Shown here one piece after another: positions 7,101 to 50,453 of a stretch of 53,024 nt of DNA. Under the pieces are notes generated by a model. The model was not told where the DNA came from. It saw only the letters and a program-made list of their open reading frames with translations, and made no database searches. How positions within the stretch are numbered: position 1 is the stretch's first letter; every line of letters begins with the position of its first letter. The position numbers were made by a program, and so were the translations under genes. Source of the DNA: Catajapyx aquilonaris (lineage: Eukaryota); the NCBI GenBank assembly GCA_000934665.2, contig JYFJ02002667.1, positions 1 through 53,024 of the forward strand, written 5' to 3'.

Positions 7101-7792
7101 CGTCTCCTTGCCCGATCAGGCCAGAGTCAGGCCTACAAATTAAGACGAGGCAATCATGAATCTCATGGAATGAGGGTAAAGGAACTATTTTTATTATCAT
7201 CATACATTCGTTGGGACTCGCTGAAATGCCAAATTCTTGTCTACGGTGTGCAGTTTTTTTCCCCCCCCTTTTGCTCCTTTGTCTCTTCTCGACGTAAAGA
7301 TGAGTTTTCTTGTGAGCGATTTGATCGCCGAGCGGTAACATCGCTGAGTAACCTGAGTAACCTGTGTTGTTGGAGGAGAAAATCGATTGTGACTGTCGAT
7401 GATTTAATTAAATTGGTAACCTCTACAAACATTCGACATTGAGAACATGCTCTAATTTTGTGTTCGGTAGTAGACTAGAGTAATTGCAAACTGGAAAGTC
7501 GCATGATCTTATTGTTATTTTTCGTTCCCTTCCCGTTCAGCCTGCCCAGAAGGAAGCGGAACCCTCCGGGTCCCTCACCCAGTCGATGGACCTGAAGAGG
7601 AAGGTGCTGGACGCATTCGAGTTTGGAGATTCCTCGTGTCGTCACAACCTGGAAGCAACTGCCAGGAAATTCTGTCTCAGCACCACCACAGTGTGGTACT
7701 GGATCAGATACATTCGACCCCACCTCCTCTCCAAGAGTCAGATGAACCCGCCAAGTCAACACTCTGATGAAAGGAATGTTGGTACAAAGTAA
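1136..7792 (+). CDS. Gene A (5' end outside window): multi-exon poly-Brinker-DBD protein, 8 HTH domains
   Basis: AG/GT-bounded phase-0 exons: 1136-1282, 1335-1412, 1493-1636, 1756-1995, 2160-2414, 4161-4400, 4567-4776, 5059-5313, 5871-5948, 6268-6411, 6516-6755, 6921-7175, 7541-7792 (stop). All lengths are multiples of 3 and open. Repeated YSLxFKxKVLxxYxxxxSxCRHNxxATARKFGxxxxxVxxWVK matches the Brinker DBD pattern. Confidence 0.8.
1756..1995 (+). CDS. BrkDBD exon A1 (type I)
   Basis: 240 nt AG/GT exon; helix GISNFAVRCWVK. Confidence 0.8.
2160..2414 (+). CDS. BrkDBD exon A2 (type II)
   Basis: 255 nt; GLPHQTVWHWVK. Confidence 0.8.
2520..2870 (-). mobile_element. Mariner transposase C-terminal fragment
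   Basis: PHLPYYPRLAPSDFYLFGSMK resembles mariner HPPYSPDLAPSD(F/Y)HLF. Confidence 0.8.
4161..4400 (+). CDS. BrkDBD exon A3 (type I)
   Basis: 240 nt; GVSDCTVSRWVQ. Confidence 0.8.
4567..4776 (+). CDS. BrkDBD exon A4 (type II)
   Basis: 210 nt, donor CAG|GTACGT; GLPPITVSSWVK. Confidence 0.75.
4813..5023 (+). mobile_element. 5'-truncated SINE
   Basis: Matches body and tail of SINE 8522-8826; (TTA)n tail. Confidence 0.75.
5059..5313 (+). CDS. BrkDBD exon A5
   Basis: 255 nt; DLSQGLLWIWLK. Confidence 0.78.
5378..5600. mobile_element. MITE-like inverted repeat (copies at ~16312-16470 and ~21850-22065)
   Basis: TTCACTTACTTAAGAGCC...GGCTCTTAAGTAAGTGAA inverted arms. Confidence 0.6.
6516..6755 (+). 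CDS. BrkDBD exon A6 (type I)
   Basis: 240 nt; GMSFSVVSRWVK. Confidence 0.8.
6921..7175 (+). CDS. BrkDBD exon A7 (type II)
   Basis: 255 nt; GLPPITVWQWVK. Confidence 0.8.
7541..7792 (+). CDS. BrkDBD exon A8 (invariant terminal domain)
   Basis: DLKRKVLDAFEFGDSSCRHNLEATARKFCLSTTTVWYWIR, ends in TAA. Confidence 0.8.
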   Translation, partial: PAQKEAEPSGSLTQSMDLKRKVLDAFEFGDSSCRHNLEATARKFCLSTTTVWYWIRYIRPHLLSKSQMNPPSQHSDERNVGTK

Positions 7793-8103
7793 ACAAAACT
7801 CTAAATGCAATGTGCAATTAGTTTGAGACATCGGGACCGCAATGTGACGGACAGATCTATTCCGTAAGACATTTTTTCGATTGTGCGTGATAATTACTTC
7901 ACCCTGTACAGCAGACTTCACTTATAACAGACGTCAAGGGATGGCGGAAATTAGTCTCCTCTAACAGGGTCTGTCATAGCGTAACACACAGGACAGATGT
8001 GGTGTGCAGATATGCTGGGACCAACCTTTTCAGGTTGTTGTAACCAAGGGTATTATATCTAGAGTCAACTGTACTAGAACTGAATGTATTAAAATTGTAT
8101 CAT

Positions 8104-8205
8104 GCACATCAATTGCGCTGCTCCAACTGCAAGACATGCACCACATCTGTGTGGCGAAGGAACAATGGCAAGCCAGTGTGCTATGCTTGCGGACAGTACA
8201 CGTGA
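8104..8205 (+). pseudogene. GATA-type zinc-finger exon relic behind gene A
   Basis: [30 protein letters not shown]; acceptor AG mutated to AT; 3' part deleted relative to B/D. Confidence 0.7.
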
Positions 8206-8521
8206 AGTGGTGATCCCCTGCTTCATTGTTGTTTGATGTTGTACCATTTTCGTGCCTTTGTATTTTATACGGATCATGTGATGTTAATTATGAGAACGAA
8301 GACTGCTTCCCGAGGGTGCTGGAATGATCTCACTCAGCCAGTAAATAGGGTACTTGCTCTGTTATTTCCCAAATAAAAATAATTCCAAGAAGTTCTTACA
8401 GGAGGAACATTTATTCACTGCTTCGCAACAGCTTGGCTAACAGCACTGCCAATGTTATCTCACTAAAATGCATTGAGTGGAAGGCTTTTCACACCAGTTG
8501 TTCAGAATATCCATTGGTGAC

Positions 8522-8826
8522 AACCGAAGCAGTTTGGTGGAGTGGATAAGGTTTTCGACTGCTAATCGGGAGGTCCTGGGTTCGAGCCCCGGGGCCAGAA
8601 ATCCTAACCGTGGTTTTCTGTGATTTCCCACGGTCCCCCCAGGAGAATTCCGGGGTTGCTTCCTAAATAATTAGGCCACAGCCGCTTCCTTCCAACCCTA
8701 TCCTATCCCAAAAAGCAAAGTAAAAAATTAAAGCGAAGAGTTCCAGTCAAAACAAAATTGGGATGTACTCCGCTCCCCCCTAAAGAGCCTCCAGCTGATA
8801 ACGGGGGTATGAATTTTTATTATATT
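8522..8826 (+). mobile_element. Full-length tRNA-derived SINE
   Basis: A-box TGGTGGAGTGG, B-box GGTTCGAGCCC (8579), AT-rich tail, 16-bp TSD AATATCCATTGGTGAC at 8506-8521 and 8827-8842. Confidence 0.9.
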
Positions 8827-9374
8827 AATATCCATTGGTGACCACAAGAAGATGTCTTGTCGCCTCTTTTGGCCACTTGCTACCTTCATTTCTTCAACCT
8901 GACTACAACCAGGACTGTGACCTTGACCTTCCAACTGCAGCATGGATTGTTCCTCCAGTCCACCTCATCACATCACAAACAGTAATAGAGCTGTTGTGTT
9001 TTTACCATCATTTACTGCATACGTGTAAGCTGCATGAAAGTGTGACAAGGAGTTGGGTTTGTCATGAAAGCCTCCTCCTGCTGTCGCCATATATGCTTAG
9101 CGGACGATTTGGGAAGAAATTAACTGATGGGCATAACTGACAGCCTTTGGGTTGGTCAGAAGCATGTTCTCCAAGTTAATGTGTTGCCGGTACGTAAAAG
9201 ATGGCAGTGGGATTGGTTACCTATAATAAGTGGCGTAACTGGTGGTTAACCCTGGAAGCGTGCTGTGAGGTCCTTTAGGACTCCACGCCATGTTTTAATT
9301 TTTATGTAAGGAAGGAGGCCCTGTTTTCACCTGCACTAATCAGCTTTTCCCATTTAATTTCCACACTCTTTTTA

Positions 9375-9631
9375 AATATTGGACCAGTTCGAATAATCCC
9401 GCCAGATGACGATGGACACACACTATCGGTATCGTTAGTGAGGTGATGGACGATTGCCGGGTAGGTCTTGATCGATACCATCTTCCCTCCAAGCTTGTCT
9501 CGCCTTGTTCCATCTTTTCTTCCTCCTCCTCCTTCTCCTCCGGACCTCCTGAAGAGAGTCTTCTTCTTGTCTGGTGAGTGTGGCTTCCTCTTGCCCATCT
9601 GGGGAATTACATTGTTTGGGCATGTGCACAG
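9375..9631 (+). promoter_or_regulatory. Putative promoter / 5'UTR exon and short intron of gene B
   Basis: Conserved with C and D; DRE-like GATCGATA at 9470; donor GTGAGT 9574, acceptor CACAG 9631. Confidence 0.5.
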
Positions 9632-9650
9632 GTGGAGACCTGCAGAGGGG

Positions 9651-10010
9651 ATGATGAGCCTCCAGCCGCATCATGGACCAAGCCTGATGGCCACCGAAGA
9701 AGGGCAGTTCAGGTGCGTCTACTGCCTGGACGCCACCTTCAGGACCAGGCTGCAGCTGAGGGCACACCAGTTCGTACACGGGCCCAGGGACGAGGTCAAG
9801 GTGGAGCCAGAGGAGGATGCGGCACAGGGAAGGGTGGTCGTCGTAACAACGGAGGAGGAGAGGCCAACTGGAGGAGGGGATCAGCCGCACCAGAAGGAGG
9901 AAGAGTCCGTCTTGAACTCTGGTGGTGGTGACCCTCCAGGAGAAGCTGAACCTTCATTCGAATTCATTTCCATTGACGGCTGGCCTGGACAGAACAGGGC
10001 ACGTGCAGAG
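9651..10010 (+). CDS. Gene B first coding exon: C2H2 zinc finger + acidic region
   Basis: FRCVYCLDATFRTRLQLRAHQFVH (C-x2-C-x13-H-x3-H), then VKVEPE; donor GAG|GTAACC. Confidence 0.8.
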
Positions 10011-13000
10011 GTAACCTTCGTGGCGGTGAGGCGAAAATGGCAACCCTTCAGTACATTGTGTGTCCAGGTCACTATTGCCTGTTTAAATATAAACCCTACT
10101 GATGGGGTCGTAGCCTGCATGTAAAAAGTCGTCCTTATTTTTAAATGCGTTTTGGTGCTTTTTGTTTGAAGAAATCAATATTAGTTTTCGAGCTATGATT
10201 GATCTAAAATCATAATAATTATACGGTATTGTATTGCCCTCTCACTTCATGCTCAAACTTGTAGGGGTGATAGAGGGGACCAAGACAAGAATTTTTGACA
10301 TAGGAACCCGTGTCCGGAAACGCCATCTAGAGGGGGTTCATAGACAAGGAACGGGTGCGCTACTCAGGCTCGTCAGGCAAGAGGTGCTAGTCGAGCAGAC
10401 TGTTTTGTTGATAGGTGGCGTGCAGTTGTTGCCAGGTTATGGCGTATCGCGTAGTCACGTGGCGTCGTTGTAAAACAAACAACAACGGGACAAGCCATAA
10501 CCTGGCAACAACAGAACCGCTGTTGACTCTCCGCGCGTCTCCCAGGAGGCGGACTTTAGTTGCTAGATGGCTCTGCTGTTGCCAGGTTATGGCACATCGC
10601 ATCGTTGGTTACTATCCAAGCGCAATCTATCAACAAAACAGTCCGCCTCCCGCGTGACGCTTCTGAGCGCATCCCCTCTGGATGGCGTCTCCGGACACGG
10701 GTTCCTATGTCAAAAACACTTGTCTTGGTCCCCTCTATTACGGTACCACTGAAAGTCTTTGCAGAGTTACAATAAACACCCTGTATTATACCAGAACTCA
10801 AAAGAGTTTATAAATGTGTAACGAGTGGAAAAACCGGTTTCCAGATGTCGCCTTGGTAAGGGTGCAGTTTAGAGCCGCAAATGTCTTCCAGGTTTCTATA
10901 TATTTTCTGAATCTACTCGATGAGATGAGTCGAATGACACTATTCCTAGTGTGCGGAAATGCTTGGTGCAGGAGTAATTGAATTTTGAAATTGCAAGTAA
11001 TAACAATGAATAAATGAAAATAAACAAGTGTTCCTTTGTTGAAACAGTTTACTCCCATTGTTGAGTGAATGAATATCCGTGGTAATTTTAAACGTAGTTT
11101 GGGGGTTGTGTGTTCGCAGAAATACTGTCCGCCTTGTGGTGCCGTAGATGTGGGTGTTGCGGATGTGGATGTGGCAAAGCCACAATAACGTTCGTTGGCC
11201 TGCGGCGCCACAAGACGGCCAGTCAATGTTGCGGATACAGAAACCCACAATAAGCGCCCAGCTCCGCTTTCGCTCCGCAAAAACTAAAAATATCACGCAC
11301 AGGCGACGTACCGTGCCTGGCAGGGCCACAAGACGGACAGTACTGGTACAGTCACACCAACGCCTCACAGATAACACCAACACAATCAGAGTGGGGCATG
11401 CCTTGAGTAAAAGCTTAGGATTCATTTTGTTGGCGGGCAAGAGGCCTCGAGCAGTGGCCCAGGAGATACCAAGCAACCTCCCTCATTACTTCCAGGAAGG
11501 CTTGCCCAATTATTCCTGATAAGCACCGATGCAATGCCTTGGCCATGGACGCTCCTGAATGATGTTAAATTAAACTCCTACACTCTCGTTCCAACGAACC
11601 AAGAGCAACCGTTTATTTACATCATTCAGCATCCCTCACAGCTCGTTTCCACGGAGAATCACCTGACGCAACAATGGTAGTGAACAGTCTCAACAAAGGA
11701 ACACTTGTTTACTTTCATTTTATTCATTGTTATCACATGCAATTTCAAAATTCAATTACTCTTGAACCACACATTTCCGCACACTAGGGATAGTGTCATT
11801 CGACTCAGCTCATCGAGTAGATTCAGAAAATGTATAGAAACCTGCAAGATTTTTGCGGCTCTAAACTGCACCCAAGCCGTCGCCTTTTTTGGCCACTTGT
11901 TTGGTCAACGTGTTTGGTTGTCGGCCACTACGCGGCGCCACCGTCGAGTGCTGTCGAGATGAATTTCAATCAAATATGTTGATTTAATATCAAGAGGCAC
12001 ATAATTAAGAGTTATTAATCTAAACACTGACCGATATGAGGTCATGTGCGGTTAAGGAACTAATTTTGGACCGGAAACTGATGCTCAGGGCAGCTGGCCA
12101 CCCTGCACCTAACAATACAAATAATTACCTCAGCCTCGTTGTTTAGAAATCACGTTCGAATTTCGAAATGGAACAAGTTCCTTTGCCGACAATGGGGCTG
12201 TAGAGGGTTGGGTGCCGCGCGCTACTACTGCTGTTCGCGCACAGGGTCTCGGACCACATTCTTTTCGTTACCAAAGGACCCTCCACGGCTCTCGAGTTCA
12301 CAGGGAGAACGCTGTCAGGGTTGGGCAGGCAGGTGGGCCTCCCAACGGTTGTCAATGGTTCGTCTCAAACAATCGGGTGCATTGATAGGACTGCCAAATT
12401 CATGCCTTCATCCTTTGCGTAGTTAGTGGGGATATACAAGGAAGAAGGGAGGATTGAAAGTCCAGGTCACGTGGTTATGGAAATCATTGACGAAACCATA
12501 ATCGGTTACTGTTTGCATCCTTCACGCTTTCTTTTATCGTGACATACGTGGGCGAGTTACAATGGGGTTAAAGCTGTGGGATACAATCATCAATTAACTG
12601 TTAGCCGCACTCTCCACTTTGTGGATCCTGTGACTTGCGCAAACACTCGAGCAATCCAGTCGCAAGCTTGAAAGAAAAAGTAGGGAAGGGTGGAGTACCA
12701 AAGGCCACTTCTTTCCCTTCACTTGGCCAAGTTTCAATGGCGGAGGGAGATGAGAAGAACAGGAACTGATCCATTCATGGGATTCAAGTCTGTGGGCTGT
12801 CTTCTGGTTGTTACGTGGAACTCTGCTTTATTCTTGTTTTCGGGTCTTCAGGGGATTCTATTCGGGACAGATTTTGAGGTGATTATAAGATGGAATAGCC
12901 TTTGTGTTGGTGATGCTGTATGGCTTTTTGTCACCGCAACAGTACTGTCCCAGCACTCATCTTATCAGTTCGCATGGCACGAGTAAGAAGACGCCCTTTG

Positions 13001-16000
13001 TTGTGCTCGCCCGGCAACCGATTGTTTGCAACCCGTAACCAACATGTTTGGAGGGCACCCTGCTGTGCCGCGTCACTAGGTGCAGATAAACGATAGTATA
13101 ATCCAGCGCCACATTGAACTTGAGCTGTAGAGTTTTTAATGTCAAGAAATGAGGGCAATGTGAATGCACAGAAATGTTCATTGAACCTATTTTAAACGCC
13201 ATTGTGGTATTTCAGGGAGTCGAAAGTGTCAGAGCAGAGCAGCCTGCTGTGATGGAAACAATAGTTGAAGACACGTGCGGGAGTGACTCGGACTTGGACG
13301 ACAGGAGTGAAATCCAGGCTGGTGTGGAACCTGCCCCCAAACACACCATTCCTGAGGAGAGATCAGGAAGGAAGAGGACGCAAAGAAAGGTGAGATGCGA
13401 GTTTGTAGCATGACACAAATTCTGAAACTATTCCTTTTCAGGTGATTGTCCGAGAAGATGAGTACAGCACGAGAATTTCAAAAGCATCTCAAGAATTTTC
13501 AAATCTCAGTTTGCAAAATGTAAGGCCACACTTCATCAGGAATGACTTGTTGTGATTCCACACAGTTGCATTTCCCTTTGTAAGGTTAAAGTATAATCCC
13601 CGCTTGGTTAGGAGGAGGTGCCAGCGAGAGTAAGGAAGTCAAAACTGGTTGCTCGGGTCAAGGTGACGGAGCAGAGCCAGGCAGGCAGTGAGGACACGAT
13701 TCTAGCCGATGACCTCAAGAAATCCAGTGCAAAGGACAAGGAGCCAAAACCAATGGCAAGTCTCATTTCCCGTCATTAACTGGAAGGAATTATGCGTTTA
13801 AAAATATATGCTACACGCCTGCCTTGAGCAGATGAGGTCATGTATTTCCTCTACTTTGAAATATCCGTTGCAGCCGACAACTGGAAAGGAGAAAACCCAT
13901 AAGCCACGCACTCACTCACTGGCCTTCAAGGAAATGGTGCTTGATGTCTACGAGTTTGACAATTCCAAATGTCGTCACAATTATGATGCAACTGCACACA
14001 AGTTTGGAATAAGCGCATGTGCTGTGACGTATTGGGTGAAAGCCATGCGACCTCACCTCCTCGCCTGCCAACCAAAGGAAGCTGCCAATGAGATGTCAAG
14101 TAATGGGACGAAGGTAAGCCTCATCAGATTATTAAACAAAAAGGATGAGGACTCAACATCACGCAGAATAATTTCTGAATCTGCTGTATGATTGAGTGCT
14201 GGAAAGAAACAGATCAATGTCGGATAGGTACAGTTATGTACTGAGATGTTTTTTTTTTCACCTCTTAAATGCAGCCAAACTCCAGCCATCTGCATTTCCG
14301 CACATCACCTTATTATTCACTGGATTTCAAGAAGAAAGTACTGGAGGCCTACAAGTCTGGTGATTCCAGATGTCGTCACAACGTGACGGCAACTGCAAGG
14401 AAGTTCGGCCTACACCAACAAACAGTGCGGAAATGGGTGAAGTTTCTCCTGCCCCGTCTCCTTGCCCGATCAGGCCAGAGTCAGGCGGACCAATCCAGGC
14501 GAGGCAATCATGAATCTCATGAAATGAGGGTAAAGGAACTATTTCTCATGTCATCATACACTTGTTGGGACTTGCTGAAATGCCAAGTCTATGGGCATCT
14601 TTTCTAAGGGGCGAGTTAAATTTTTTGCCAAAAATACATGGCTCTCACATGTCAGGTGGGAACATATTATCGAGCGATTCCTTCTGGAGCCTAATGCATT
14701 GGCAGCACAGGGGTGCCAACCTCTCCTAGGCCCTGCATGAACCACATTTTGGTGGCTCGATGGTCGGCGATGGCAAACCTTGTCATCTCGTACTCCTCCA
14801 AAGCGCGAATAATTTGGGCTAAGTTGTATTGGTTTTTGCACAGCTATTCAAACCGTTTCACCACCGCACCGGGTACAATCGGAAGAACAATTTCGACTGT
14901 AGAACGGCTGATTCCCTGTCCAGGTTGCCAGGGAACCAGTTCAGACCAAATAATTTAAAAAGCGCGTGGGCAACAGGGAACCAACTGTTCTATTTCGGAA
15001 GTTCTCCCTCCGATTGTTCGAGGTGTGTTGGTGAAACCGTTTAAATAGCTGTGCAAAAACCGATAGCCCAAATCTCCGGCCATTTGAGCCTAAATCGTCT
15101 CAAACCATCGCAGTAAGACTTGACGTCGACAGATTTACCAGGAGGGAGAAACTCCATATGCACAATTGCATTTTTTTAAACCGACGCATCAGGCTTACCT
15201 TGAGCAGTGATATTAACTTGACAACTGATGCTGTATGATTTCCTCTACTTTTAAATTTCTGTTGCAGCCAACCTCTGGGAAAGGGACAACACACAAGAGA
15301 CGCATCCATGCACTGCCCTTCAAGGAAATGGTGCTCGATGTCTACGAGTTTAGCAATTCCAAATGTCGTCACAATGCATATGCAACTGGAAAAAAATTTG
15401 GAATAGGTGACTGTACCGTGAGCCGTTGGGTGAAAGCCATGCGACCTCATCTACTTGCACGCCAACGAAAAGAAGATGCTCATCAGATGTTCGGGAATAG
15501 TAAAAAGGTAAGCCTCATCAGGTAATAATTAAGCAGTGAGGAAGATGGATTCAAGATTATGGGTAGTAATAATAATAATAATGATGTTAGTGGAAGAGAG
15601 AAAGATTGTGTCGAGAATATAACATGTTTAAGATGTTTGTTTTCCACCTCTTCCGCAGCCAAACTCAGTGGAACTGCATATCCGCACCTCTCATAAATAC
15701 CCCCTGGATTTCAAGAAAAAGGTTCTGGAAACCTACGAGTCTGGTGATTCCACATGTCGTCACAATGCGGCTGCAACTGCGAGGAAGTTTGGCTTAAAAG
15801 GAATAACAGTGTGGTCTTGGGTGAAGTTCCTCCGACCCCAGCTGCTTGCCCGTTCAGGCCGGAGTCAGGTACGTGCCAATCAAGGCGAGGCAGAAAGGAC
15901 GAGTCATGAAATGAGGGTAAATGAACTATTATTTTTTTAAATAGCCACACTTCTGCTGGGAGTTGCAGAAATGCCAATTCCATGGAAAATTTGGGTTCCT

Positions 16001-19000
16001 CTTTGCTCCTTTGATTCTTCTAAGAGTAAGAAGGGATGCTGACAGGTTGTGTTTGGCATGAATGAGACGAGGATCCATTCAAAGTCTATGTGTCTTGGGC
16101 AGTTAGGGGGGCAGTTCAAAAGAATCGAAAAGGCACCCAGAATGTGTGCATTTTTAAATGCCAAAGTAATTATACTACATGACGCCACTGATATGCCCAC
16201 AAGGGATTTATTTTTTAAGACTACAGTAAAACTTCCAGAAGTCGAATCTCCATGGGACCGGAATTTTTTTTCGAGTTACAGAAGATTCCAGTTAGAGAAG
16301 TTTGGAATTTTTTAAGAGCCCTTACAATCGTCCCAAGGGGTGGTTAGGGGTGGGTAATCCGGAGGGGTTCGGGCGGGAGGGGAGGACAAACAGGACCTAT
16401 AAGACTTGAGGATTATAGGTCCGGTTTTTCCTCCCCTCCTGATTACGAACCCCTCACCATCCCCTGGACATGCATATTTGACCTAACATTGACAATATTT
16501 CTGATAACCATGTGACTGGTACATAGGCTACTGCTTAAATACATTTTAAAAACATGCTTACCCCTATTCAGAATTCAGTTTGAACATGCTCAAGTCTCTC
16601 AGTTGAGCTGTTGTTTCTCGTGCAAGAAAAGTGGTTGTAAAGATGGGTCCTTTTCAAAGGCCTCACATACATCGTTGCCTGCTTTCCAGGAAGAGACGTG
16701 CGGCAGTGACTCAGACTTGGACGACAAGGGTGAACTGACCACTGGTGTGAAACCTGTCGTCAAACACGCCTTTCACAATGGGAGAGCAGGAAGGAAGAGA
16801 GCACAAAGAGGGGTGGGGAGGAGAGTTTGACGCAAGACACAAATTCTAAAACTATTCCTTTTCAGGCCAATGTCCGTGAAGATGACTGCAGCGCAACAAA
16901 TTCAAAACCATCTCGACATGTTTCAAAACCAAAGTTGCAAAATGTAAGAACATTTGTACAGTGTTATGCAATAACGAGTCAACCCGCATGAGAACAGTGT
17001 TGTGGGAAAAGGGGCTTTGAAGGTCACAACTCTGGAATTAATTCACTGTCCTTTTCGGTCATTCATGGCAGAAGCATGCAGATTTCGCCAGCTTGCTTTT
17101 AACTTATTCCAGTGCGATCCTTTGGGCATCATGGGATTAACTCGATTTCGACATTTTTGTTGGTTGACACATTATTCCATGACACCTTCCATTTCGTCAG
17201 GAGTGACTTGTTGTGATTGCAGAGTTGCATTTCCCTCGACAAATTTGAGTGAATTCCCTGCCCGTTTAGGTGGAGGTGCCAACAAGAGGAAGGAAATCAA
17301 AACTGGTTGCTCAAGTTAAGATGAAGGAACAGAGTCAGGGAGGAATTGAGGACGCAATCACCGATGATGGCCTCAAGACATCCGGTGCGAAGGACAAGGA
17401 ACCAAAACGAATGGTAAAATTCATTTTCTGTCAAGGCTGATGAAATTCCTTTAAATAAAATATGCCAACTGAGGCTGTAAGATTTCCTCTCCTTTTAAAT
17501 ATCCATTGCAGCCGACCTCTGGAAAAGGGACAACCCGTAAGCCACGCATCCACTCACTGGCCTTCAAGGAAAAGGTGCTTGATGTCTACGAGTTTGACAA
17601 TTCAGAATGTCGTCACAATGAAAATGCAACTGCAAGAAAGTTTGGAATAAGCTCATTTGCTCTGAGGTATTGGGTGAAAGCCATGCGACCTCACCTCCTC
17701 GCCTGCAGACGAAAGGAAGATGCTCATCAGACGTCAAGCAATGGGACAAAGGTAAGCCTCATCAGATGATTAAGCAATGAGGATGTGGACTCCAGGTCAT
17801 AGGAAATAATTACCAAAGCTGCTGTATGCTTGAGTCCTTGAAAGAAAGAGCTCATGATTGTTGGATAGACAGTTATGTTCAAAATCGTTTGTTGTCCATG
17901 TCTTTTGCAGCCAAACTCAGGCGAACTGCAAATCCGCACATCGCAATACTCCCTGGATTTCAAGAAGAAAGTGCTGGAAGCCTACCAGTTTGGTGATTCC
18001 ACTTGTCGTCACAACACGGGTGCAACTGCTAGGAAGTTCGGATTACCAAAGGCAACAGTGATGTATTGGGTCAAGTTTCTCCTGCCCCGTCTCCTAGCCC
18101 GATCAGGCCAGAGTCTGGCCTACAAATCAAGACAAGGCAATCATGAATCTCATGAAATGAGGGTAAAGGAACTATTTTTATTATCATCATACATTTGTTG
18201 GGACTTGCTGAAATGCCAAGTCTATGGACTTCTCATATACAGGCTATAGTTTATTTCCCCCCGGAAAATGCAGGGCTCTCACAGGTTGGCAGCTTGTCAG
18301 GCATTATCGAGAGCTTCCGATTGGAGCCTAATGCACTGGCACCACAGGTGTATGTGGCAGCCTCTCCAGGCCCTCCAGGAACCACTTTTTGGTGGGGTAG
18401 CGTGCCCATTCCCGGACAACTGCTTCCTGTTCAACAATGTCCTCGAAATGGCAATGGCGAATGAGTTTTTCTACGGCTCTGAACAGGTGAAAGTCACTGG
18501 GGGCCAGTTCAGGGTAGTACGGCGGGTGTGGAAGCATCCACAACCAGATCCATGGAAACATCCCTTCACAGACACCATTTCAAGGACATTGATGACAGTT
18601 GTTGACTGTGTGCAGTTGTCCGGGAGAGGGTGCTTAGCATCATGAAATTGGTTCTTCGAAGGCCTGCAGGGGTGTGTCAATCGAAATTCCTTGTTAGCCC
18701 AGATATGCCGAGTGTCCCCTACAGGGGACACCTGCACAGTTGTTATATTTTAATTTTTTTGAGCTGGTTCTTCTGATGCTAAAGAGCTGGCAGTAGTCGC
18801 GGGTGATTCAGTAGAGTCCCAGCTAACGATGCAAGTTCAAACCTGCTCAAATATTGCTTCAGCTTTTTAAGATACAGGTGTTTGATTTTTAACGCAGGAA
18901 ATAATGGCTTCACCTCCACGTTCCAAATATGATTACCAATTAATTCTCAAATTTGATTAATGTTATGAGTTATGAGCGACACATTGAACTGGAGCTGCAG

Positions 19001-30906: not shown

Positions 30907-31173
30907 ACAAATCTCTAAATGCAATGTGCAATTAGTGTGAGACATCGGGACCACAATGTAAAGGACAGATCCATTCCGTAAGACTTTTTTTTTGATTGGG
31001 CACTAAAATTACTTCACCTTGTATAGCAGACTCCAGTAGTTATAACCAAGGTTTGTCATATTGTAACACACAGGGCAGATGTGGTGTGGACCAACCTTTC
31101 GAGACTGTTGTATCCAGGGCTATTATATCAAGCGTCAACTGTACTAGAACAGAATGTATTAAAATTGCATCAG

Positions 31174-32685: not shown

Positions 32686-32704
32686 GTGGAGACCTGCAGA
32701 GGGG

Positions 32705-33070
32705 ATGATGAGCCTCCCTCAGCCCCAACCAGGACCAAGCCTGATGGCCACCGAAGAAGGGCAGTTCAGGTGCGTCTACTGCCTGGACGCCACCTTCAGG
32801 ACCAGGCTGCAGCTGAGGGCACACCAGTTCATACACGGGCCAAGGGACTGGGTGAAGGTGGAGCCAGAGGAGGATGCGGCAGAGGGAAGGGTGGTCGTCG
32901 TAACAACAGAGGAGGAGAGGCCAACTGGAGGAGGGGATCAGACGCACCAGAAGGAGGAAGAGTCCATCTTGAGCTCTGGTGGTGGTGGTGACCCTCCAGG
33001 AGACGCCGAACCTTCATTCGAATTCATTTCCATTGACGGCTGGCCTGGACGGAACAGGGCACTTGCCGGG
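32705..33070 (+). CDS. Gene C first coding exon: C2H2 zinc finger
   Basis: FRCVYCLDATFRTRLQLRAHQFIH; donor GGG|GTAAGG. Confidence 0.8.
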
Positions 33071-40632: not shown

Positions 40633-40897
40633 CTGAAGTATGAGGAATCACGACCACTAGTAATATTTCCTGCATGTGCAGAGTAGTGCTCAAGTGCTTG
40701 TGAGCAGGCAAACTGCTGGCTTGACAGAGATATTCTATCATTTCTGTTGCCGGTGTATGTGTTGCCATCAAGGTTAATGTAATAACAGTTTTTAAAATGC
40801 TCTGACCGTACTGTACGTACAACAACAGCTGAATGAATAGAGTGGGTAGGTCGAAAAAGTTACCTGTTCTGAAAAGGATTATCCTGTGTGCTTGCAG

Positions 40898-41292: not shown

Positions 41293-41857
41293 GGTCCGTT
41301 CTCAAAGCAGCGGGTTGGAGCAAAGCGTGCGCTTGCAAGCGCCTTGGAGCGGGTGGTTTGGCCGCTCGAGAATATTATGGTCTTCACGAAGTAGCTGGCG
41401 TGCGTGGCTGGTGCGCGCTAGAGTAAGCGCGTATAGACCATTTTCGGCGGCGAGCTAATTAAAATATTTCAAATAATTACGCTTGCCTATGAACTTATGA
41501 CATAATAGTGACATTTAATACCAAATACACCTGCAATTTTGTAAACTATTTTCAAGTAAATAAAGACCACGTCACGTGACATATTCCAAAACATTCGAAT
41601 CGGAGCCCACTTGATTACGTCACGTGACCACGTGACTCCCACAGGGCCACCGGATTGGTCCCCATGGAGCGGGTGGTGGGCCAAAGTGGGTAGAAATGAA
41701 CCCGGAGTAGATCGCACCCGCTAGCCCCTAGCAGCTGGCAAGTGTATCTCTACTGATCTCTACCCACTTTCGAATGACGTCAGAGCGGGCAAACCACCCG
41801 CTCCAAGGCGCTTGCAAGCGCACGTTTTGCTCCAACCCGCTGCTTTGAGAACAGACC
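41293..41857. mobile_element. Non-autonomous DNA transposon, ~75-bp TIRs, TTAA flanks (Kolobok- or Harbinger-like)
   Basis: TTAA|GGTCCGTTCTCAAAGCAGCGGG...CCCGCTGCTTTGAGAACAGACC|TTAA. Confidence 0.8.
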
Positions 41858-41961
41858 TTAAGTCACGCTGGAATTGACAAGGAGCAAGTGAGGTACTGAT
41901 GGCTCACTCCAGTCTGGTTTATAATATTGTGTACTACCATTTAAAGTGCCTTTGTATTATA

Positions 41962-42881
41962 CAGGGTGATCCAACTCTATGGCACCAGTAGTTATTGGAA
42001 AAATCGCGCAAGCTGCTTGTTTATAAGCAGGTCGTTGCTAAGAGATCAATAAGAGATACTTTCTGGAGAATTGGGAATAGCACCTGCTGATATTAGGTCC
42101 AATGCCCATGTAACAATTAATGAGGGAAAAAAGATCATACGTGGGAAACAGGCCTGTTCTGGTGTTCGCTGGAGGGTTTCACATGAGGTCACTAGCTGCC
42201 AAACCAAAGGTCTAATCCGTCGGAACTGGACAGACCCGGGTGTGTCAATAAATAGGCCTTCTGGTCTGTTCATTGTTGGCCGCAGTTGGCGCAACTGATA
42301 ATAGGTCAACAGGCAGCGTTGTTTAGTTACCAGTCTTAGCACCTGCTGATATTAGGTCCAATGCCCATGCATGTACCAATTAATGAGAGAATGCCCAATG
42401 CAGACTGTACTGTTAGAACCCTAGGAGCCCTTGGGCGGCCCTCAAACAGGCCCCCTGAGTAAGGCATGTCCTGGTCCTGACTCTACAAGAACTATTTATT
42501 TATACTGGTAACTAAACAACGCTGCCTGTTGACCTGTCTCAGTTGCGCCAACTGCGGCCAACAATGAACAGACCAAAAGGCCTACTTATTGACACACCCG
42601 GGTCTGTCCAGTTCCGACGGATTAGGCCTGTGGTTTGGCAGCTATAGTGACCTCATGTGAAACCCTCCAGCGAACACCAGAACAGGCCTGTTTCCCACTG
42701 ATGACCCCTTTTTTTCCCTCATTAATATTGTTACATGGGCATTGGACCTAATATCAGCAGGCGCTATTCCCGATTCTCCAGAAAGTATCTCTTATTGATC
42801 TCTTAGCAACGACCTGCTTGTAAACAAGCAGCTTGCTCATTTTTTCAATAACTGTTGGTGCCATAGAGTTGGATCACCCTG
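41962..42881. mobile_element. Tc1/mariner-superfamily foldback MITE with ~375-bp TIRs
   Basis: TA|CAGGGTGATCCAACTCTATGGCACCA ... TGGTGCCATAGAGTTGGATCACCCTG|TA. Confidence 0.88.
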
Positions 42882-43224
42882 TACAAAGATCCTGTTATTT
42901 TCATCTCGAGAGCAAAGACTTGGATGCTTCCTGAAGGCAGGTGTGTACTGGAATGCTCTCATGTCCAGTAAATATCATTCTTGCTCTGCAAACTGGTTAT
43001 TTTCTATCCTGGTTTGAATATCCCGCGTACCTGTGACTGCTGAATCCCTCGTCCGTGTCAGTACGTAAGAGATGGGGATTGGTTACCGATAACAAGTGGC
43101 ATAACTGGTGGTTAAGGTGAGAAGCAGAGGAAGCAAGCCTTAAAACTACCTGGTATTTTCTCACCTCCACTAAACAGCTTTTTCCCATTTAACCTGTTCA
43201 TTTGCACACTTAACAAGCTGTTTA

Positions 43225-43492: not shown

Positions 43493-43510
43493 GAATATCC
43501 TGCAAAGGGG

Positions 43511-43807
43511 ATGAGTCTCCACCAGCCCCACCGTGGCCCGCTAATAAGCAGCATGGCCACCGAAGAAGGGCAGTTCAGGTGCGTCTACTGCCTGGACGCC
43601 ACCTTCAGAACGAGGCTGCAGCTGCTGTGCCACCAGTTCATACACGGGCCTGGAGACACTGTGAAGGTGGAGCCGAAGGAGGATGCCGCAGAGGCGGTCG
43701 TAACAATGTTGGAGACGGAGAGACGTGAAGGAGGGGATCAGTCGCACCAGAAGGAGGAACCTTCATTCGAATTCATTTCAATTGGAGGCTGGCCTGGACA
43801 GGGGGAG
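43511..43807 (+). CDS. Gene D first coding exon: C2H2 zinc finger
   Basis: FRCVYCLDATFRTRLQLLCHQFIH; donor GAG|GTGAGG. Confidence 0.8.
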
Positions 43808-46800
43808 GTGAGGGTCGGTTCATTAAAATGGCCTACCCTCCATACTTGGCATGGGAATGCCCAGGGGCGGGGGCAAAATTCCCCGGGCCCGCGTGACCCG
43901 GTAGTATAATATTAATAAGAGATGGATTTCCAGAAGGAAAGTATAAAAAGTGAGACACGATCGTAAATGGGGCAGCAGCGACTGATTTCCTTGGGAATGT
44001 TATGCCTTAATGCCACTCTTGCCCTGAAATTGAATTCCGACGACATCACTGACAGAATTCGCCCTGGATAGGAAGGCCGGACAAGTTGAGTTGACCAAGT
44101 AGTGCGCATGGGTATGTCTTATGTGCATCAGTGCATACAGGAATCACATGAGAAGATCAAGTATTTCATGTGCTGCATTCCAACAGTTTTGCCATCCTGG
44201 ACCAATTTGCCATAATTTACATACGGCTACTACAAAATTGTCGAAAGTTACCGGGTTATCGCTGCCTCGCCATATCTGTAATATGTTTGCGTGGACAGTA
44301 AATACAGCCTACGACTGATTATTATGGGAGTCCGGATTTTTAGGCAAATGCCTATTTAATTCATTAACAGTTGGGATGGTTTTGTGAAGAGATCTATTCA
44401 TTTCATAAGTGCCGAATGCGGGGAATGTAGGTTTTATAGTGCCTATAATGGCCTATTTCGTGGTTTTGGTTGACTTTCTGCGACTTTTCATGCCTACTTG
44501 GCCTTTTTTGGGATGGTTTTTGAACTTTTTGAGGCGATTTTGAGACTTTTTTTTGAAAAAATTCCAATTTCAGGACTTTTTGGGCTTATTTCTTCATATG
44601 CATGTTTGGTTTTTTTTAAAGAGTTTTTTTTGTGCTCCTGAAAGGACCAAAATGGTTCAGAAGTAATACTACAAGTCATGTTTGTGTGGCGCTTATGCCA
44701 AATATTTTTCTTAATTTTCCTCTTATTGTTCCAACCAGAGGAAAATTTAGAAAAATATTTGGCAACATATATTGTGCAAGTGGAAACTGGCTATACCCGG
44801 TAATAGAGTCCAGCACAAGTGATACTTGTTTGCACTGTGTGTCTTTTGCCCAAGTTTCCTAATTTCCTGTCGGTTGTTCGGGTTATGCTCTGGTTTGTGA
44901 CCTTACATTCATACTTATAAAATTATTCTAGCTTTTTTATTTTTGGTAACATTATCCTCCAGTATTTAAAAATGTGTGCCTATTTGAGGGTTTATTCGTG
45001 CCCATTTCTGGGTTTTTTCGTGCCTAAAAATCCGGACTCTACTGATTATGTTTCCCGATATAATCCCACTGCCTTTTTCTTGCGGACAGCAATTTCGAAC
45101 GAAAATGTTTAACTGTCACTGTCTGTATTTGAGCGAAGGGGGCCTGAATCTTTGTCGTCCATGGGGCAAGGCTCGACATGTCTCTGGCCCTGGCCATGCC
45201 AGTATGGTCTGTTTAAATATAAACCCTAGGGATGAATGAATGTTAATTGAACTGTCCTGAATGTAAAGTATACAACCTCATTAGAAATTATTGTGATGTT
45301 AGCTGAAGCTAATCCAGCAACGCATTCAACTTCAGCTTCAGAGCTTGTAATGCCATGAAATGAGGGCAATGCAAATGGACAGAAATGTTCACTGAACCTA
45401 TGGTATTTAAAAATTTAATGTGGTATTGCAGGGAGTCGAAAGTGTAAGAGCAGAGCAGCCTGATGTGATGGAAACAGGAGATGAAGACACATGTGGGAGT
45501 GACTCCGACATGGATAGCAGGGGTGAAATCCAGGCTGGTGTGGAACCTGCCCCCAAACGCACCATTCCTGAGGAGAGAGCAGGAAGGAAGAGGACGAAAA
45601 GAAAGGTGAGATGAGAGTTTGTAGCGAGACACAAATTCTGAAACTCTTCCTTTTCAGGTGACTGTCCAAGAAGACGAGTACGGTACAAGAAATTCAAAAG
45701 CATCTCGAGAAGTTTCAAATCTCAGTTTAAACAACGTAAGAGAACACTGCATCAGGAATGACATGTTGTGATTCCACAGTTGCATTTCTCTTTGCAAAGT
45801 TAAGTATAATCCCTGCATGTTTAGGAGGAGGTGCCAGCGAGAGAATCAAAGCTGCTTGCGCGGGTGAAGATGATGCAGCAGAGCCAGGCAGGCAGTGAGC
45901 GCACGATTCTAGCCGATGACCTCAAGACATCCAGTGCAAAGGACAAGGAACCAAAACCAATGGTAAGCCTCACTTTCCGTCATGGACTGGACGAAAATAC
46001 GCTTCAAAAAATTTATGGTACAGACCTACCTTGAGCAGATGAGGTCATATTTCCTCTACTTTTAAATATCCGTTTCAGCCGAACTCTGGAAAGGGAAAAA
46101 CCAGTAAGCAAAACAGCTACTCACAGGCCTTCAAGAATAAGGTGCTCGATGTCTACGAGTTTGACAATGCCGAATGTCGTCACAATTACGATGCAACTGC
46201 ACGGAAGTTTGGAATAAGCGCATGTGCTGTGAGGAATTGGTTGAAATCCATGCGACCTCACCTCCTTGCCTGCCGAGCAAAGGAAGATGCTCATCAGATG
46301 TTAGGGAATAGGAAAAAGGTAAGCCTCATAAGATTATTTATAAGCAAAGAGGAAGATGGATTCAAGATCACCGGTAGTAATTACTAAATCTGCCACATAC
46401 CCCATCAGTGCTGGGAAGAAAGAGAGCGAGATTGTCTTGACAATATAATATTATGTTCAAAATGTTTGTTTTCCACCTCTTCTGCAGCCAAAGGCAGGGG
46501 AACTGGAAATCCACGCGTCATATCGTTACTCCCTGGAATTCAAGAAGAAAGTGCTGGAAGCTTACCAGTCTGGGGACTCCAAATGTCGTCACAATGGAGC
46601 TGCAACTGCAAGGAAGTTTGGTGTACCCCAACAAACACTGTCGAAATGGGTGAAGTTTCTGCAGTCCCGTCACCTTCTCCAATCAGCCCAGAGTCAGGTA
46701 CGTACCAATCAAGGCCAGGCACTCGTGAAAGGAGAAGTCACGACAGGAGGGTAAATGAACTATTATTTTCCTAAATCACCACACTTCTGCTGGTAGTTGC

Positions 46801-49800
46801 AGAAATGCCAATTCCATGAAATGTGGGTTGCTCTTTGCTCCTTTGATTCCCTCCGAATAAGAAGGGATGCTGGCAGGTTGTGTTTGGCATGAATGAGACG
46901 AGAATCCATTCAAAGTCTGTGTGTCTTGGGCAGTTAGGGGAGCAGTTTCAAAAGAATCGAAAAGGCACCCAGAATATGTGCATTTTTAAATGCCAACGAT
47001 GCAAACTTATGCAAAGTAATGTTATACCACAATATGAAGCCAGTGATATGCCCACAAGGGATTTATTTTTAAAGATTATATTATTTTGGTTATACAGAAG
47101 AACCCGATAATTCGATCTCTGATTATCCGAGGCCCTTTTATGTGCTCCGACCATGGCTTGATCCCGTGGGTGACGGATAATCGGGGTTCTACTGTACATG
47201 TTTTTTGAATCCCTCTGGGCTCACATTTCTCACCCCTACATTTTTCACTTCGTTTGGGCCAACAAGTGTGCTCCTAGTCAGAGGAGATAGACTAAATATA
47301 CACCTTGAATTTTCCACCACCTTTGCAGGAAATCAAGGGGAGTGGGAAAAGATGTAGATCACACTCTCTGGACTTTAAAAATAAAGTTCTGGATGCCTAT
47401 GAGTTTGGTGATTCCTCATGTCGTCACAACCAGAGCGCAACTGGAAGGAAGTTTGGCTTAAACCAAGGAATGTTGTGTAGATGGGTGAAGCGGCTCCGAC
47501 CCCATCTCCATGGCCTTTCAGCCCAAGGTCAGATGCACCAACCACAACAAGATGCTGATGAAATAGCAAATGACAAAACAAGGGTAAGAATTTGACTCTT
47601 AACATTACTCAGTGATGGCAGAAAAAAATGTAGAATCGAGAGAAAGGAGACCAAAACTGGTTGCTCCGGTTAATGTGATGGGACAGAGTCAGGGAGACAG
47701 TGAGGACACAATCCTTGCTCACGAGCTCAACACATCCAGTGCAAAGGACAAGGAACCAAAACCACATGTAATAATTCCTTCATATGCAGGATAGTCTCTA
47801 ATAATATATAGATTGAACAGTTATTCTGCTTTAAAGAAGCCAAATTCGCCAAGCAATATCATACCACTAATTCCCTAATTCTGTGACGATGCTTTTATGT
47901 CCCGTCAACACTCATTGCCTTGATATAGTAACCATGGTTGATCACTTATGCCGTTCATTAGACGCCACATGGCGGTCAGAAAATGTGGGTTCCACTTCAG
48001 TGGAGGCGAGACACGTACTGATCATCATACCACTAGAAGCCTTATCCTCTCTGTATGCTTGTACTACTAATCCCCATATTCTCTCCGTCTGGCCCTGCTG
48101 AAATTGTTTAAGTGAATTTAAAGCTCAGCCATTTGCGGAATGCATTTAAGCGGCAAAATGTCAGGTGTGTCCAACCCCTCATATAGGGCTCATTATTCCC
48201 CACACTGGGGCTAAATTGACTTCGGAAAACACGGAATCCTTTTCTAGCATGGCAATTCTCTGCCGTACTTATGAAGATGTATACATCAAATCAATGCAAA
48301 AGTTAATTGCATTTTGGAGGGGGAGAGTCAAAGCTATACCTAAGCCCAGACTCTTTGATCACAGAAGACAATGAGGATATGTAAGATTACCATGCCGAAT
48401 TTCTGACATGTTTGCCGAAAATACGATGGCAACTTTATCTGGAATGGATGTTACATGAGTGTGTGACAGATTCCTTTTCCTTCATAAGGAGGAAGAAATT
48501 GTGTAGAAGAAACTATGCTAACATGACCAGTGACGTTAACTTGACAAGTGATTATGTAAGATTTTAATTTCGTAATATAGCATATACGTTTATATTACAG
48601 CCAATTTCTCAGGACAGGACAATCCACAAGAGATGCGTCTACTCCCTGGCTTTCAAGAGAGAAGTTCTGGAGGCCTACCAGTTTGGTGATTCCTCATGTC
48701 GTCACAATGTGATTGCAACTGCAAAGAAGTTTGGATTAAACAAAGGAACGGTGTGGTATTGGGTGAATCGCCTCCAGCCACGGCTCCTTGCCTCCTCGGC
48801 CAAGAGTCAGAGGAACCAACCAAGGCCAGGCACTCGTGAAAGGACAAGTGACGAAATGAGGGTGAGGATCTGACCGTTTCTATTGCCACACTTTTGTTGG
48901 GACTTGCTGATATGAGAAGTTACCAAACTTCTTTTTCTGTGGGGTGCTTTTTGCCCATTAGTCTCTTATCAGAGTAAGGGGAAGAAAAAAAAATGTATGC
49001 TGATAGGTTGTGGTTGACATGAATGAGGCAGAAGTCCATAAAAATGCTGGGCTTTGGTGCTCATTAGTCCCACAAAAATATTGCATGTTTCTTTAGATTT
49101 CCCGAATCTACTTGAGGAGCTGAGTCGAATGATTCTATTCGTAGGTTGCAGAAACTATTGGTTCAAAAGTTATTGAGTTCTGAAATTGTAATGAATTAAC
49201 AATCAGTCAGCAAACATTGTTGTAGCCTTGCCAGAGCCGCCTCACGCAACATCAACATCTACTGCGCCACACAACCGACAGTAATGTTGTGGATGCACAG
49301 CCTACAAATTACTTTTCAAATTACAACGGGGATGCCCTCATGCAACAACAGGAGTGAACAGTTTCAACAAAGGAACACTGGTTTATTTTCATTTCATTCA
49401 TTGTTAATTAAGTGCAATTTCAAGATTCAGTTGCCCTGGAATGAATCGTTTCTCCACCCTAGGGATAGTGCCAGTCGACTCAGGAAATGTATGGACACCT
49501 GGAATATTTTTGCGGGGATAAAGTGCACCCTTACCGACGTGTTTTCCTATCTCTCCTGGCTGACTTTCTTTCTGAAGCTGTCTGCAGCAAGCTTGAAACC
49601 ATGCTTCAGCTGTAATTTAATGTTCAAAGAACTCATATGTTCCTATGGTTGGTTCCAGAAGAAGACGAGATATGGTAATGCCAACTCAAGTGACCTGGCA
49701 CCAGATGGGGAACAGGCATCCAAGTCCACGTTGCCTGCTGAGGGAGCAAAACGGAAGGGAGCAGAGAAGAAGGTAAGGCCAGATTTTGTAGGAGGGAGGA

Positions 49801-50453
49801 ACGAGTAAAAGTGATCCTCTTCAGATGATGGTTCAAGTAGACAATGATATTACCATAAACACTTAACTGCCTATCCAGCCATCAGCGTACTTTATGGGCA
49901 AAAGAAATGGGGGTGCAAAATGCAGATTGCCCGACAATAAAATGATGCACATATTCCACCCAACATTTGCTGCTCATAAGTGTGATAACATTTAAATGTA
50001 ACTGATCCAGAGTTACTGCTTATCATCCAAAAGAAGATTTGCTAACCACTCTTAAGAATTCACATGGAACATGCTGCAGAGTTATATGCAGAAATGATTC
50101 GGATAGTTGCAAACTGCAAACTTATGTGATTAATAAATTGCTTTTTTTTTCCACTTCCTGAGCAGCCTCCCCAGAAGGAAGCGGAACCCTCTGGGTCCCT
50201 CTCCCAGTCGATGGACTTGAAGAGGAAGGTGCTGGACGCATTTGAGTTTGGAGATTCCTCGTGTCGTCACAACCTGGAAGCAACTGCCAGGAAATTCTGT
50301 CTCAGCACCACCACAGTGTGGTACTGGATCAGATACATTCGACCCCACCTCCTCTCCAAGAGTCAGATGAACCCGCCAAATCAGGACTCTCCTGGAAGGA
50401 GGAATGACGGAAACAAAGATGAACGAATAATTACTAAATGCAATAAGCAATAA
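43511..50453 (+). CDS. Gene D: C2H2-ZF + 5 Brinker-type HTH domains
   Basis: Exons 43511-43807, 45432-45605, 45658-45735, 45825-45962, 46079-46318, 46488-46697, 47329-47583, 48601-48861, 49659-49772, 50166-50453; phase 0, open. Confidence 0.78.
44323..45041. mobile_element. hAT-like non-autonomous element
   Basis: GAGTCCGGATTTTTAGGCA / TGCCTAAAAATCCGGACTCTA TIRs; CTGATTAT repeated on both flanks. Confidence 0.65.
46079..46318 (+). CDS. BrkDBD exon D1 (type I)
   Basis: 240 nt; GISACAVRNWLK. Confidence 0.8.
46488..46697 (+). CDS. BrkDBD exon D2 (type II)
   Basis: 210 nt; GVPQQTLSKWVK. Confidence 0.75.
47329..47583 (+). CDS. BrkDBD exon D3
   Basis: 255 nt; GLNQGMLCRWVK. Confidence 0.8.
48601..48861 (+). 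CDS. BrkDBD exon D4 (absent from ORF track)
   Basis: 261 nt; YSLAFKREVLEAYQFGDSSCRHNVIATAKKFGLNKGTVWYWVN. Confidence 0.8.
50166..50453 (+). CDS. BrkDBD exon D5 (invariant terminal domain)
   Basis: CLSTTTVWYWIR; stop at 50453. Confidence 0.8.
   Translation, partial: PPQKEAEPSGSLSQSMDLKRKVLDAFEFGDSSCRHNLEATARKFCLSTTTVWYWIRYIRPHLLSKSQMNPPNQDSPGRRNDGNKDERIITKCNKQ

Follow-up and report, generated by a model that had tools for sequence, protein, structure and literature searches.

In the 53,024-nucleotide (nt) stretch of contig JYFJ02002667.1 from Catajapyx aquilonaris analyzed in this study (hereafter, the window), a putative gene cluster was recognized that is assembled from helix-turn-helix (HTH) units of the Brinker type (BrkDBD; Pfam PF09607). 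In the simplest reading of its splice sites and reading frames, the cluster comprises four tandem paralogous genes, of which gene A is cut at its 5' end and genes B, C, and D are whole, followed by the start of a fifth gene (E). Each of the four ends in an exon encoding the same 58-residue HTH domain, and this invariance is probably the outcome of strong purifying selection on the folded domain of the last coding exon of the paralogues. Since all seven nucleotide changes accumulated in the domain are synonymous, such selection is needed whatever the copying history of the locus.

The peptide QSMDLKRK...SQMNPP is translated identically from the core positions of all four copies (Table 1), as the first-pass annotation had claimed for an invariant terminal HTH domain at 7541, 30655, 40369, and 50166. 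These coordinates proved to be starts of the exons, namely the first base after a conserved ..cag acceptor, and not of the peptide, which begins 39 nt further on. The assertion that the domain occurs in all four complete 3' ends was borne out by a profile scan, in which exactly four terminal-type units were found among 38 units in total, the fifth gene being cut by the end of the window. As expected from the few synonymous changes previously noticed, the 174-nt core contains six variable columns (seven changes), all of them synonymous. In the four-way alignment, similarity rises sharply at the polypyrimidine tract and the acceptor, and nucleotide identity ranges between 97.7% and 98.9% throughout the core. 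A degenerate pattern covering the first nine codons found the four terminal sites at one mismatch each and three internal units at three mismatches, with a chance expectation of 0.01 matches.

The flanks of the core were likewise found to diverge, as had been proposed. Similarity extends from approximately 10–20 nt before the acceptor to a few codons past ..NPP; beyond these limits, Jukes–Cantor (JC) distances of 0.14–0.23 were obtained where the copies are alignable, and elsewhere no alignment was achieved. Three replacements and one silent change were counted in the 13 codons ahead of the core, and the tail past ..NPP features replacements, insertions and deletions, and different stop positions among the copies. 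The limits of the constraint therefore coincide with the protein core, similarity starting at the acceptor in all copies.

Pairwise comparison of the 58-codon core by the Nei–Gojobori method gave no nonsynonymous divergence (dN = 0) and a synonymous divergence (dS) between 0.056 and 0.117, corresponding to 2–4 silent differences per pair on approximately 37 synonymous sites (S). The probability that seven out of seven changes are synonymous under random mutation is 2e-5 to 1e-4 for kappa values of 1 to 4. Compared to 16 independent nearest pairs of internal units, featuring 181 replacements and 76 silent changes, the terminal core with zero and seven, respectively, is clearly distinguished (Fisher p = 2.5e-4). 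Recent gene conversion had previously been named as the explanation to be adopted if identity extended equally to synonymous sites and flanks; instead, the copies differ both silently (dS 0.06–0.12) and in their flanks (0.14–0.23).

Long bacterial-type open reading frames (ORFs) are absent from the window, whose GC content is 0.45 and whose CpG observed/expected ratio is 0.59. Its coding blocks are exon-like, bounded by ..yyyyncag on the acceptor side and gtaag on the donor side, and the sequence was read as nuclear DNA of an animal. The profile used for scanning was built from the window's own units; it recovered 38 units, each 51 residues long and encoded on the + strand. Of these, 34 are internal and four terminal-type; one extra match with a score of 0.8 was dropped. 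The units lie in blocks of 8, 18, 7, and 5 along the window, the last unit of every block being terminal-type. Internal units are encoded one per exon, in exons of 207–261 nt. A phase-0 GT donor and an uninterrupted reading frame between acceptor and donor were found in all 34 of these exons, and 33 show the AG acceptor at the homologous place, the exception being unit 38951 (CGG). The terminal exons begin in phase 0 and end in a stop codon at 7792, 30906, 40632, and 50453, the last of these being the end of the stop codon in the fourth copy.

Between the blocks, an exon was found that begins with MATEEGQFRCVYCLDATFRTRLQLRAHQF.., encodes one C2H2-like finger and an acidic stretch, and closes with a phase-0 donor. 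The finger reached Pfam expectation values (E) of 0.017–0.037, which is under the cut-off. Such first exons and the terminal exons alternate along the window, and each gene appears, from its splice sites, to lead from a first exon (C2H2-like finger and acidic stretch) via short linker exons and 4–17 BrkDBD exons to the terminal exon. One giant gene using the terminal exons as alternative ends was also considered; separate genes are the simpler reading because each terminal exon contains an in-frame stop and is followed by ATG-led first exons.

Concerning its family, the HTH label given to the terminal domain was right, and the domain can be specified as a divergent relative of the Brinker type. 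Five out of six internal units tested passed the Pfam gathering cut-off for BrkDBD (23.4 bits) with 25.6–31.6 bits, the sixth reaching 21.3 bits; by this cut-off, the array is a BrkDBD member, but not the terminal unit when taken singly. When 37 exon products were combined into a profile, it matched 2GLO, the structure of Drosophila Brinker on omb enhancer DNA, with an E of 1.1e-8; it included the four terminal and 33 of the 34 internal products, unit 21550 being omitted since it is identical in core protein to unit 15698. A search of the terminal exon product against 1.84 billion protein clusters (one representative each) returned 16 proteins at E ≤0.001, the best at 3.8e-8 and all at most 42% identical. 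This best match, P0002, carries three Pfam BrkDBD domains (E 1.1e-65). Two or three such domains were found in eight of the ten best matches scanned and none in the other two. Judged by sequence, the terminal unit is thus significantly similar to undoubted BrkDBD members.

Aligned with 33 internal exon products, the terminal product shows 30–45% identity, and the motif FK..VL..Y...D..C..N..ATARK(F/Y).......W is common to the units and 2GLO. The earlier picture of a constant module beside variable ones was supported in this respect and gains a further feature, since the variable modules have the same fold as the constant terminal one. An AlphaFold2 (AF2) model of the terminal exon product (gene B copy, computed from the 37-row alignment) reached a mean predicted local distance difference test (pLDDT) value of 70.5 and placed helices at residues 10–28, 37–44, 48–58, and 60–67. 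Its top Foldseek match in the PDB was 2GLO, with a probability of 0.99 but an E of 0.19. In the VIA-align comparison, the model and 2GLO gave a Z of 5.1 and a root-mean-square deviation of 2.9 Å over 49 residues, a score also reached by unrelated HTH domains that bind DNA (Z 5.0–5.7). Word-based searches among longer proteins yielded no match at E ≤0.001 for the terminal exon, a 190-residue internal ORF, or the first exon, which is weak evidence, and the ESM Atlas returned generic small HTH clusters only (≤0.88, under the 0.9 mark).

When the 38 unit cores were placed in a maximum-likelihood tree, the terminal ones formed one clade (100/100), the stem of which (0.46) is the longest branch; their tips measured between 0 and 0.014, compared to a median tip of 0.046. 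This long stem shows that the separation of the terminal domain from the internal units is old. Since the genes duplicated, the terminal domain has admitted synonymous changes only, at or slightly under the local neutral rate, and during that time many residues of the internal units changed, above all at the start of helix 2 and on helix 3. The internal units form types common to several genes, with mean dN values of 0.08–0.13 and mean dS values of 0.06–0.32 within types. Residues F5, Y13, N23, T27, F31, and W41 are invariant in all 34 of them. The highest entropy was determined for positions 24, 25, 34–36, 39, 40, and 44, each being occupied by 7–13 different residues. On the AF2 model (unit position p corresponds to model residue p+13), these positions fall on the first two residues of helix 2, on the turn and start of helix 3, and one and two turns along helix 3, and they align to Q-R, H-R-R, and Q-K of Brinker in 2GLO. 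Helix 3 is the predicted recognition helix of the fold, and the variable positions are predicted to be recognition positions.

To characterize selection on the internal units, variable positions were picked from one half of the data and evaluated on independent pairs of the other half. The ratio of nonsynonymous to synonymous differences per site (pN/pS) was 1.00 at variable positions vs. 0.42 at the remaining ones in one direction (eight pairs, Fisher p 0.003) and 0.99 vs. 0.32 in the other (seven pairs, p 0.008); with positions picked post hoc, the values were 1.55 and 0.44. These comparisons indicate moderate constraint on the framework of the internal units and none at the predicted reading positions. 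The terminal unit carries the replacements F5L and Y13F at residues invariant in all 34 internal units, and G32C at a residue that is G in 32 of them. It keeps the framework common to Brinker and the internal units (K6, C20-R-H-N23, A26-T27, R29-K30-F31, and W41). Its positions 39 and 40 are W and Y, the commonest states among internal units, and aromatic residues abound in its helix 3 (TTTVWYWIRYI).

According to the mechanism proposed here, the variable HTH exons would endow every paralogue, and perhaps every splice variant, with a DNA specificity of its own, while the constant C-terminal HTH would supply a function needed by all paralogues. The unit exons are phase 0 at both ends, and duplication, loss, or skipping would therefore leave the terminal exon in frame, so that the array could gain or lose units or undergo alternative splicing. 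Binding of a fixed DNA half-site, by which the terminal domain would serve as an anchor in the way that Brinker's single domain binds DNA, is tentatively put first among the conceivable functions, because the framework common to Brinker is kept and positions 39 and 40 hold the commonest states. A surface for a protein partner or for self-association is a possible role of lower probability, which is kept open because of the conservative replacements F5L, Y13F, and G32C and the aromatic helix 3; what is left of the probability falls to something else, e.g., folding or localization.

In its stronger form, this alternative holds that the constraint is real, but that the conserved function is a protein–protein contact (dimerization or co-factor recruitment) and that the domain does not bind DNA. 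Besides the altered residues and the aromatic helix, it can draw on the behavior of effector domains in other transcription-factor families, where a constant module is common to paralogues with variable DNA-binding arrays. However, the framework residues of Brinker and the internal units are kept, W39 and Y40 are typical of internal units, and the best structural matches of the model are all DNA-binding HTH domains, which makes a role restricted to protein contact the less likely option.

Several points weigh against purifying selection on the terminal domain of four separate genes. First exons, last exons, and gene limits were inferred from splice sites and reading frame alone. No run recorded as RNA was found among those compared with the window, all three of which are contigs. 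The terminal exon by itself reached 14.9 bits (E 0.025) in both copies tested, which is under the BrkDBD cut-off, and only an E of 0.077 against 2GLO, though 2GLO was its top match. Furthermore, the protein collections searched yielded neither an orthologue nor a close relative of the terminal domain, and the case for constraint is built on four paralogues of one window, the best protein matches being at most 42% identical. For the internal units, a ratio of approximately 1 at variable positions shows that constraint is absent there and does not demonstrate positive selection. The remaining points concern copying between the genes. The core dS is at the low end, below most flank distances and below the first-exon dS of pairs with gene D, so that some homogenization is possible: for these pairs, first-exon dS (Nei–Gojobori, S of approximately 41, gapped alignment) is 0.67–0.81, far over the core values. 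Moreover, core nt 168, the sole parsimony-informative site of the core, and nt 57 (G in A and D) pair A with D, whereas the flanks pair A with B.

The latter observations are what would be expected if the terminal exon were kept homogeneous by recurrent gene conversion or unequal crossing-over between the tandem paralogues, its identity then reflecting recent copying. Such concerted evolution is also suggested by the mosaic structure of the locus, in which B groups with C by first exons, whereas the 5' intron yields the pairs A–B and C–D, and A, B, and D are alike in their 3' flank. Gene D itself is mosaic: its first exon differs from those of B and C by dS values of 0.67–0.68 and dN values of 0.20–0.22, whereas its terminal exon (dS 0.12) is as close to theirs as B and C are to each other. 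The cluster has clearly been shaped by conversion or unequal crossing-over, which may also have lowered the core dS.

Nevertheless, several observations speak against this explanation. For the 100 nt of intron before the terminal exon, the JC distance is 0.143 for A–B, and the intron distance for C–D is 0.154, close to the core dS of the same pairs (0.116 and 0.117, respectively). For the tail and 3' flank, values of 0.161 (A–B), 0.209 (A–D), and 0.226 (B–D) were obtained, as well as 0.144 for B–D further downstream; the remaining flank pairs were not alignable. Synonymous divergence in the core is thus similar to that of neighboring non-coding DNA for A–B and C–D and amounts to approximately a quarter to half of it for A–D and B–D. 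On approximately 37 synonymous sites, the 2–4 differences found compare with about 5–6 expected at a distance of 0.15 (calculated by hand), which is no significant deficit for any pair. Similarity begins at the acceptor in all pairs, and replacements occur just outside the folded core, a pattern that random conversion tracts would not give. Above all, conversion is unable to explain the zero replacements, given that all seven changes are synonymous (P ≤1e-4). Concerted evolution as the sole cause of the identity is therefore considered improbable, and purifying selection on the terminal domain is retained as the preferred reading.

The locus might instead consist of decaying repeats, such as a transposase-derived HTH array or pseudogenes, whose copies are alike because they are young: pogo/Passer transposases also carry a BrkDBD-type HTH (PMC7386202), neither RNA evidence nor annotated relatives were found in the runs and protein collections searched, and parts of the locus are damaged (the lost acceptor of unit 38951, the one-codon deletion in unit 28076, the Cys-to-Gly change in unit 35610, and the truncated first exon of gene E). 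This reading is very improbable, as all 34 internal unit exons are open and 33 keep their acceptor, the framework pN/pS is 0.32–0.44, the terminal core shows no replacements vs. seven silent changes, and all units lie on one strand and in one phase.

Among known systems, Brinker belongs to the same HTH family by sequence and provided the top Foldseek match. It contains one BrkDBD, whereas the genes proposed here would contain 5–18, one per exon, and the terminal unit represents a divergent subtype that alone remains under the Pfam cut-off (14.9 bits). Several BrkDBD per chain were found in proteins of the searched library (P0002, P0003, P0006, and others), which provided the best terminal-exon matches (E 3.8e-8 to 9e-4). 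These proteins are 32–42% identical and possess 2–3 domains with repeats near the Brinker consensus (..GNQRATARKFGIHRRQIQKWL..); neither long arrays nor a C2H2-like first exon or constant terminal subtype was recognizable in them. The architecture described here is a variant form of the known BrkDBD domain family.

With regard to the way of working, the cluster resembles those of KRAB zinc-finger genes (KRAB-ZNF), in which every tandem paralogue joins one constant module to a DNA-binding array, the units of which vary at their predicted base-reading positions on a conserved framework. The corresponding features here are 4–5 tandem genes with a pN/pS of approximately 1.0 at variable positions and 0.32–0.42 elsewhere. 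The likeness is an analogy and not a membership, as the KRAB domain and the C2H2 array are absent. The KRAB-ZNF array consists of C2H2 fingers in one large exon, whereas HTH units, each in its own phase-0 exon, form the array here, and the constant module is C-terminal and of the same fold as the variable units.

A BrkDBD-type N-terminal HTH is reported for pogo/Passer transposases and for the domesticated POGK (PMC7386202), giving the fold a known transposase connection; the units of the window differ in being arrayed as spliced exons. Pfam scans detected no HTH_Tnp_Tc5 beside the units and no DDE_1 in the ORFs scanned. For pufferfishes, 42 BrkDBD genes in Takifugu flavidus, five on one chromosome of Tetraodon nigroviridis, and none in T. 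rubripes were listed (PMC4263296); copy number thus varies strongly among close species of vertebrates, which shows that such genes can be lineage-specific and clustered. That paper gives counts only, without arrays, exon structure, or a constant terminal domain. In the open-access full-text literature, neither long BrkDBD arrays nor a constant terminal unit were found described.

The features of the cluster are compiled in Table 1.

Table 1. Features assigned to the BrkDBD gene cluster in the window (a slash marks the exon boundary).
Feature	Position	Strand	Evidence
Gene A internal array, 7 BrkDBD-type unit exons; 5' end outside the window	1756–7175	+	Profile scan, splice sites
Gene A terminal exon, acceptor to stop; core 7580–7753	7541–7792	+	..ccgttcag/CCT acceptor, in-frame stop 7790–7792
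Gene B inferred first coding exon (MATEEGQ..), one C2H2-like finger, acidic stretch	9687–10010	+	Donor GAG/gtaacc, phase 0; Pfam zf-C2H2_4 E 0.017, under cut-off
Gene B array, 17 internal BrkDBD-type unit exons, with ~5.6 kb duplicated block	13874–30363	+	Profile scan, self-comparison
Gene B terminal exon; core 30694–30867	30655–30906	+	Acceptor, stop; Pfam BrkDBD 14.9 bits (cut-off 23.4); copy modeled by AF2
Gene C inferred first coding exon, C2H2-like finger	32744–33070	+	Homology, phase-0 donor
Gene C array with 6 internal unit exons; CGG instead of AG acceptor in the final one (unit 38951)	35170–39172	+	Profile scan, splice sites
Gene C terminal exon; core 40408–40581; likeness to other copies stops at ~40623, just before its own stop	40369–40632	+	Alignment
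Gene D inferred first coding exon, C2H2-like finger, much more diverged than B/C counterparts	43553–43807	+	Homology, phase-0 donor
Gene D array, 4 internal unit exons	46079–48861	+	Profile scan, splice sites
Gene D terminal exon; core 50205–50378	50166–50453	+	Acceptor, stop, alignment
Gene E first-exon homologue, without start codon and Cys pair; remainder beyond the window	51942–52223	+	Homology

Individual members of the cluster showed peculiarities. At 38900–38951, the penultimate unit exon of gene C (unit 38951) is preceded by ..attacgg, compared to ..attacag for its gene D counterpart (48590–48640); the acceptor AG is thereby lost, although the exon is still open. Unit 28076 (28076–28225) has lost one codon in C-R-H-N, and Cys20 is replaced by Gly in unit 35610 (35610–35762). 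The first-exon homologue of gene E (51921–52313 of the window) is devoid of MATEEGQFRCVYCLD, the portion with the start codon and the Cys pair of the finger; where it matches gene B, the alignment skips from 9148 to 9731, and this exon may be a damaged copy.

Downstream of the terminal exons, ATTAAA occurs at 8088, 31158, and 50687, approximately 234–296 nt past the stops of genes A, B, and D; the 3' flank of gene C is unrelated and has no ATTAAA before +826. The strand opposite the terminal exons is also open (84–148 residues) at 7475–7921, 30748–31002, 40315–40647, and 50130–50453 (- strand). The region 50350–50732 was matched without differences by DNA contigs of runs X1 and X2 and by one contig of X5. 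Three contigs of X5 end 1–3 nt from predicted splice sites (46078, 46486/46694, and 48860), the letters beyond being unmatched. These ends were not used as splice evidence, since they lie off the exact junctions and divergent paralogues explain them equally well.

Within gene B, a tandem duplication of approximately 5.6 kb was identified (13105–24276), in which 13105–15961 and 18975–21813 are 91.8% identical and 16312–18669 and 21870–24276 are 91.5% identical. As each copy carries six unit exons together with linker exons, the gene B array evidently grew by block duplication. Between genes C and D, an inverted repeat of approximately 380 nt with 93% identity (41957–42334 and 42504–42886) was detected, which probably represents a foldback or terminal-inverted-repeat element. 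Summed contig depth at 37148–38475 and 41796–43123 was approximately 100–400 times that of neighboring bins in the DNA runs X1 and X2, with values of 20,000–46,000 and 9,000–25,000 vs. approximately 80–130 for neighboring bins in X1; both regions are high-copy repeats, the second of them containing the inverted repeat. ORF fragments containing ..HPPYYP.LAPSDF.LF.. were found on the - strand (2538–2786, 18328–18579, and 23907–24143). This motif resembles the C-terminal part of mariner-type transposases, and the fragments are called mariner-like by this motif only; Pfam gave no match for the two of them that were scanned. They are located in the intron that follows certain unit exons, and the block duplication copied them as well. 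No Rfam family reached its gathering score in the window.

Long arrays whose reading residues vary are a familiar feature of C2H2 zinc fingers, and no such arrays of Brinker-type HTH were found described in the open-access literature. It is conceivable, albeit doubtful at present, that the cluster represents an undescribed class of animal transcription factors, with clustered genes and one-exon-per-domain arrays of up to 18 Brinker-type HTH, recognition positions that vary freely, expansion by exon duplication, possible recombination by splicing, and an invariant C-terminal BrkDBD as anchor or partner module. These would constitute an HTH counterpart of the fast-evolving KRAB-ZNF repressors. 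If the genes are not expressed, the finding shrinks to an ordinary young tandem repeat. If they are expressed, the cluster would offer a natural experiment in which a single gene holds dozens of copies of one fold that vary freely at predicted recognition positions beside one frozen copy, and their comparison should reveal specificity residues as well as the function common to the paralogues. Furthermore, the phase-0 layout with one domain per exon suggests a simple route by which new DNA specificities may arise, namely exon duplication combined with alternative splicing.

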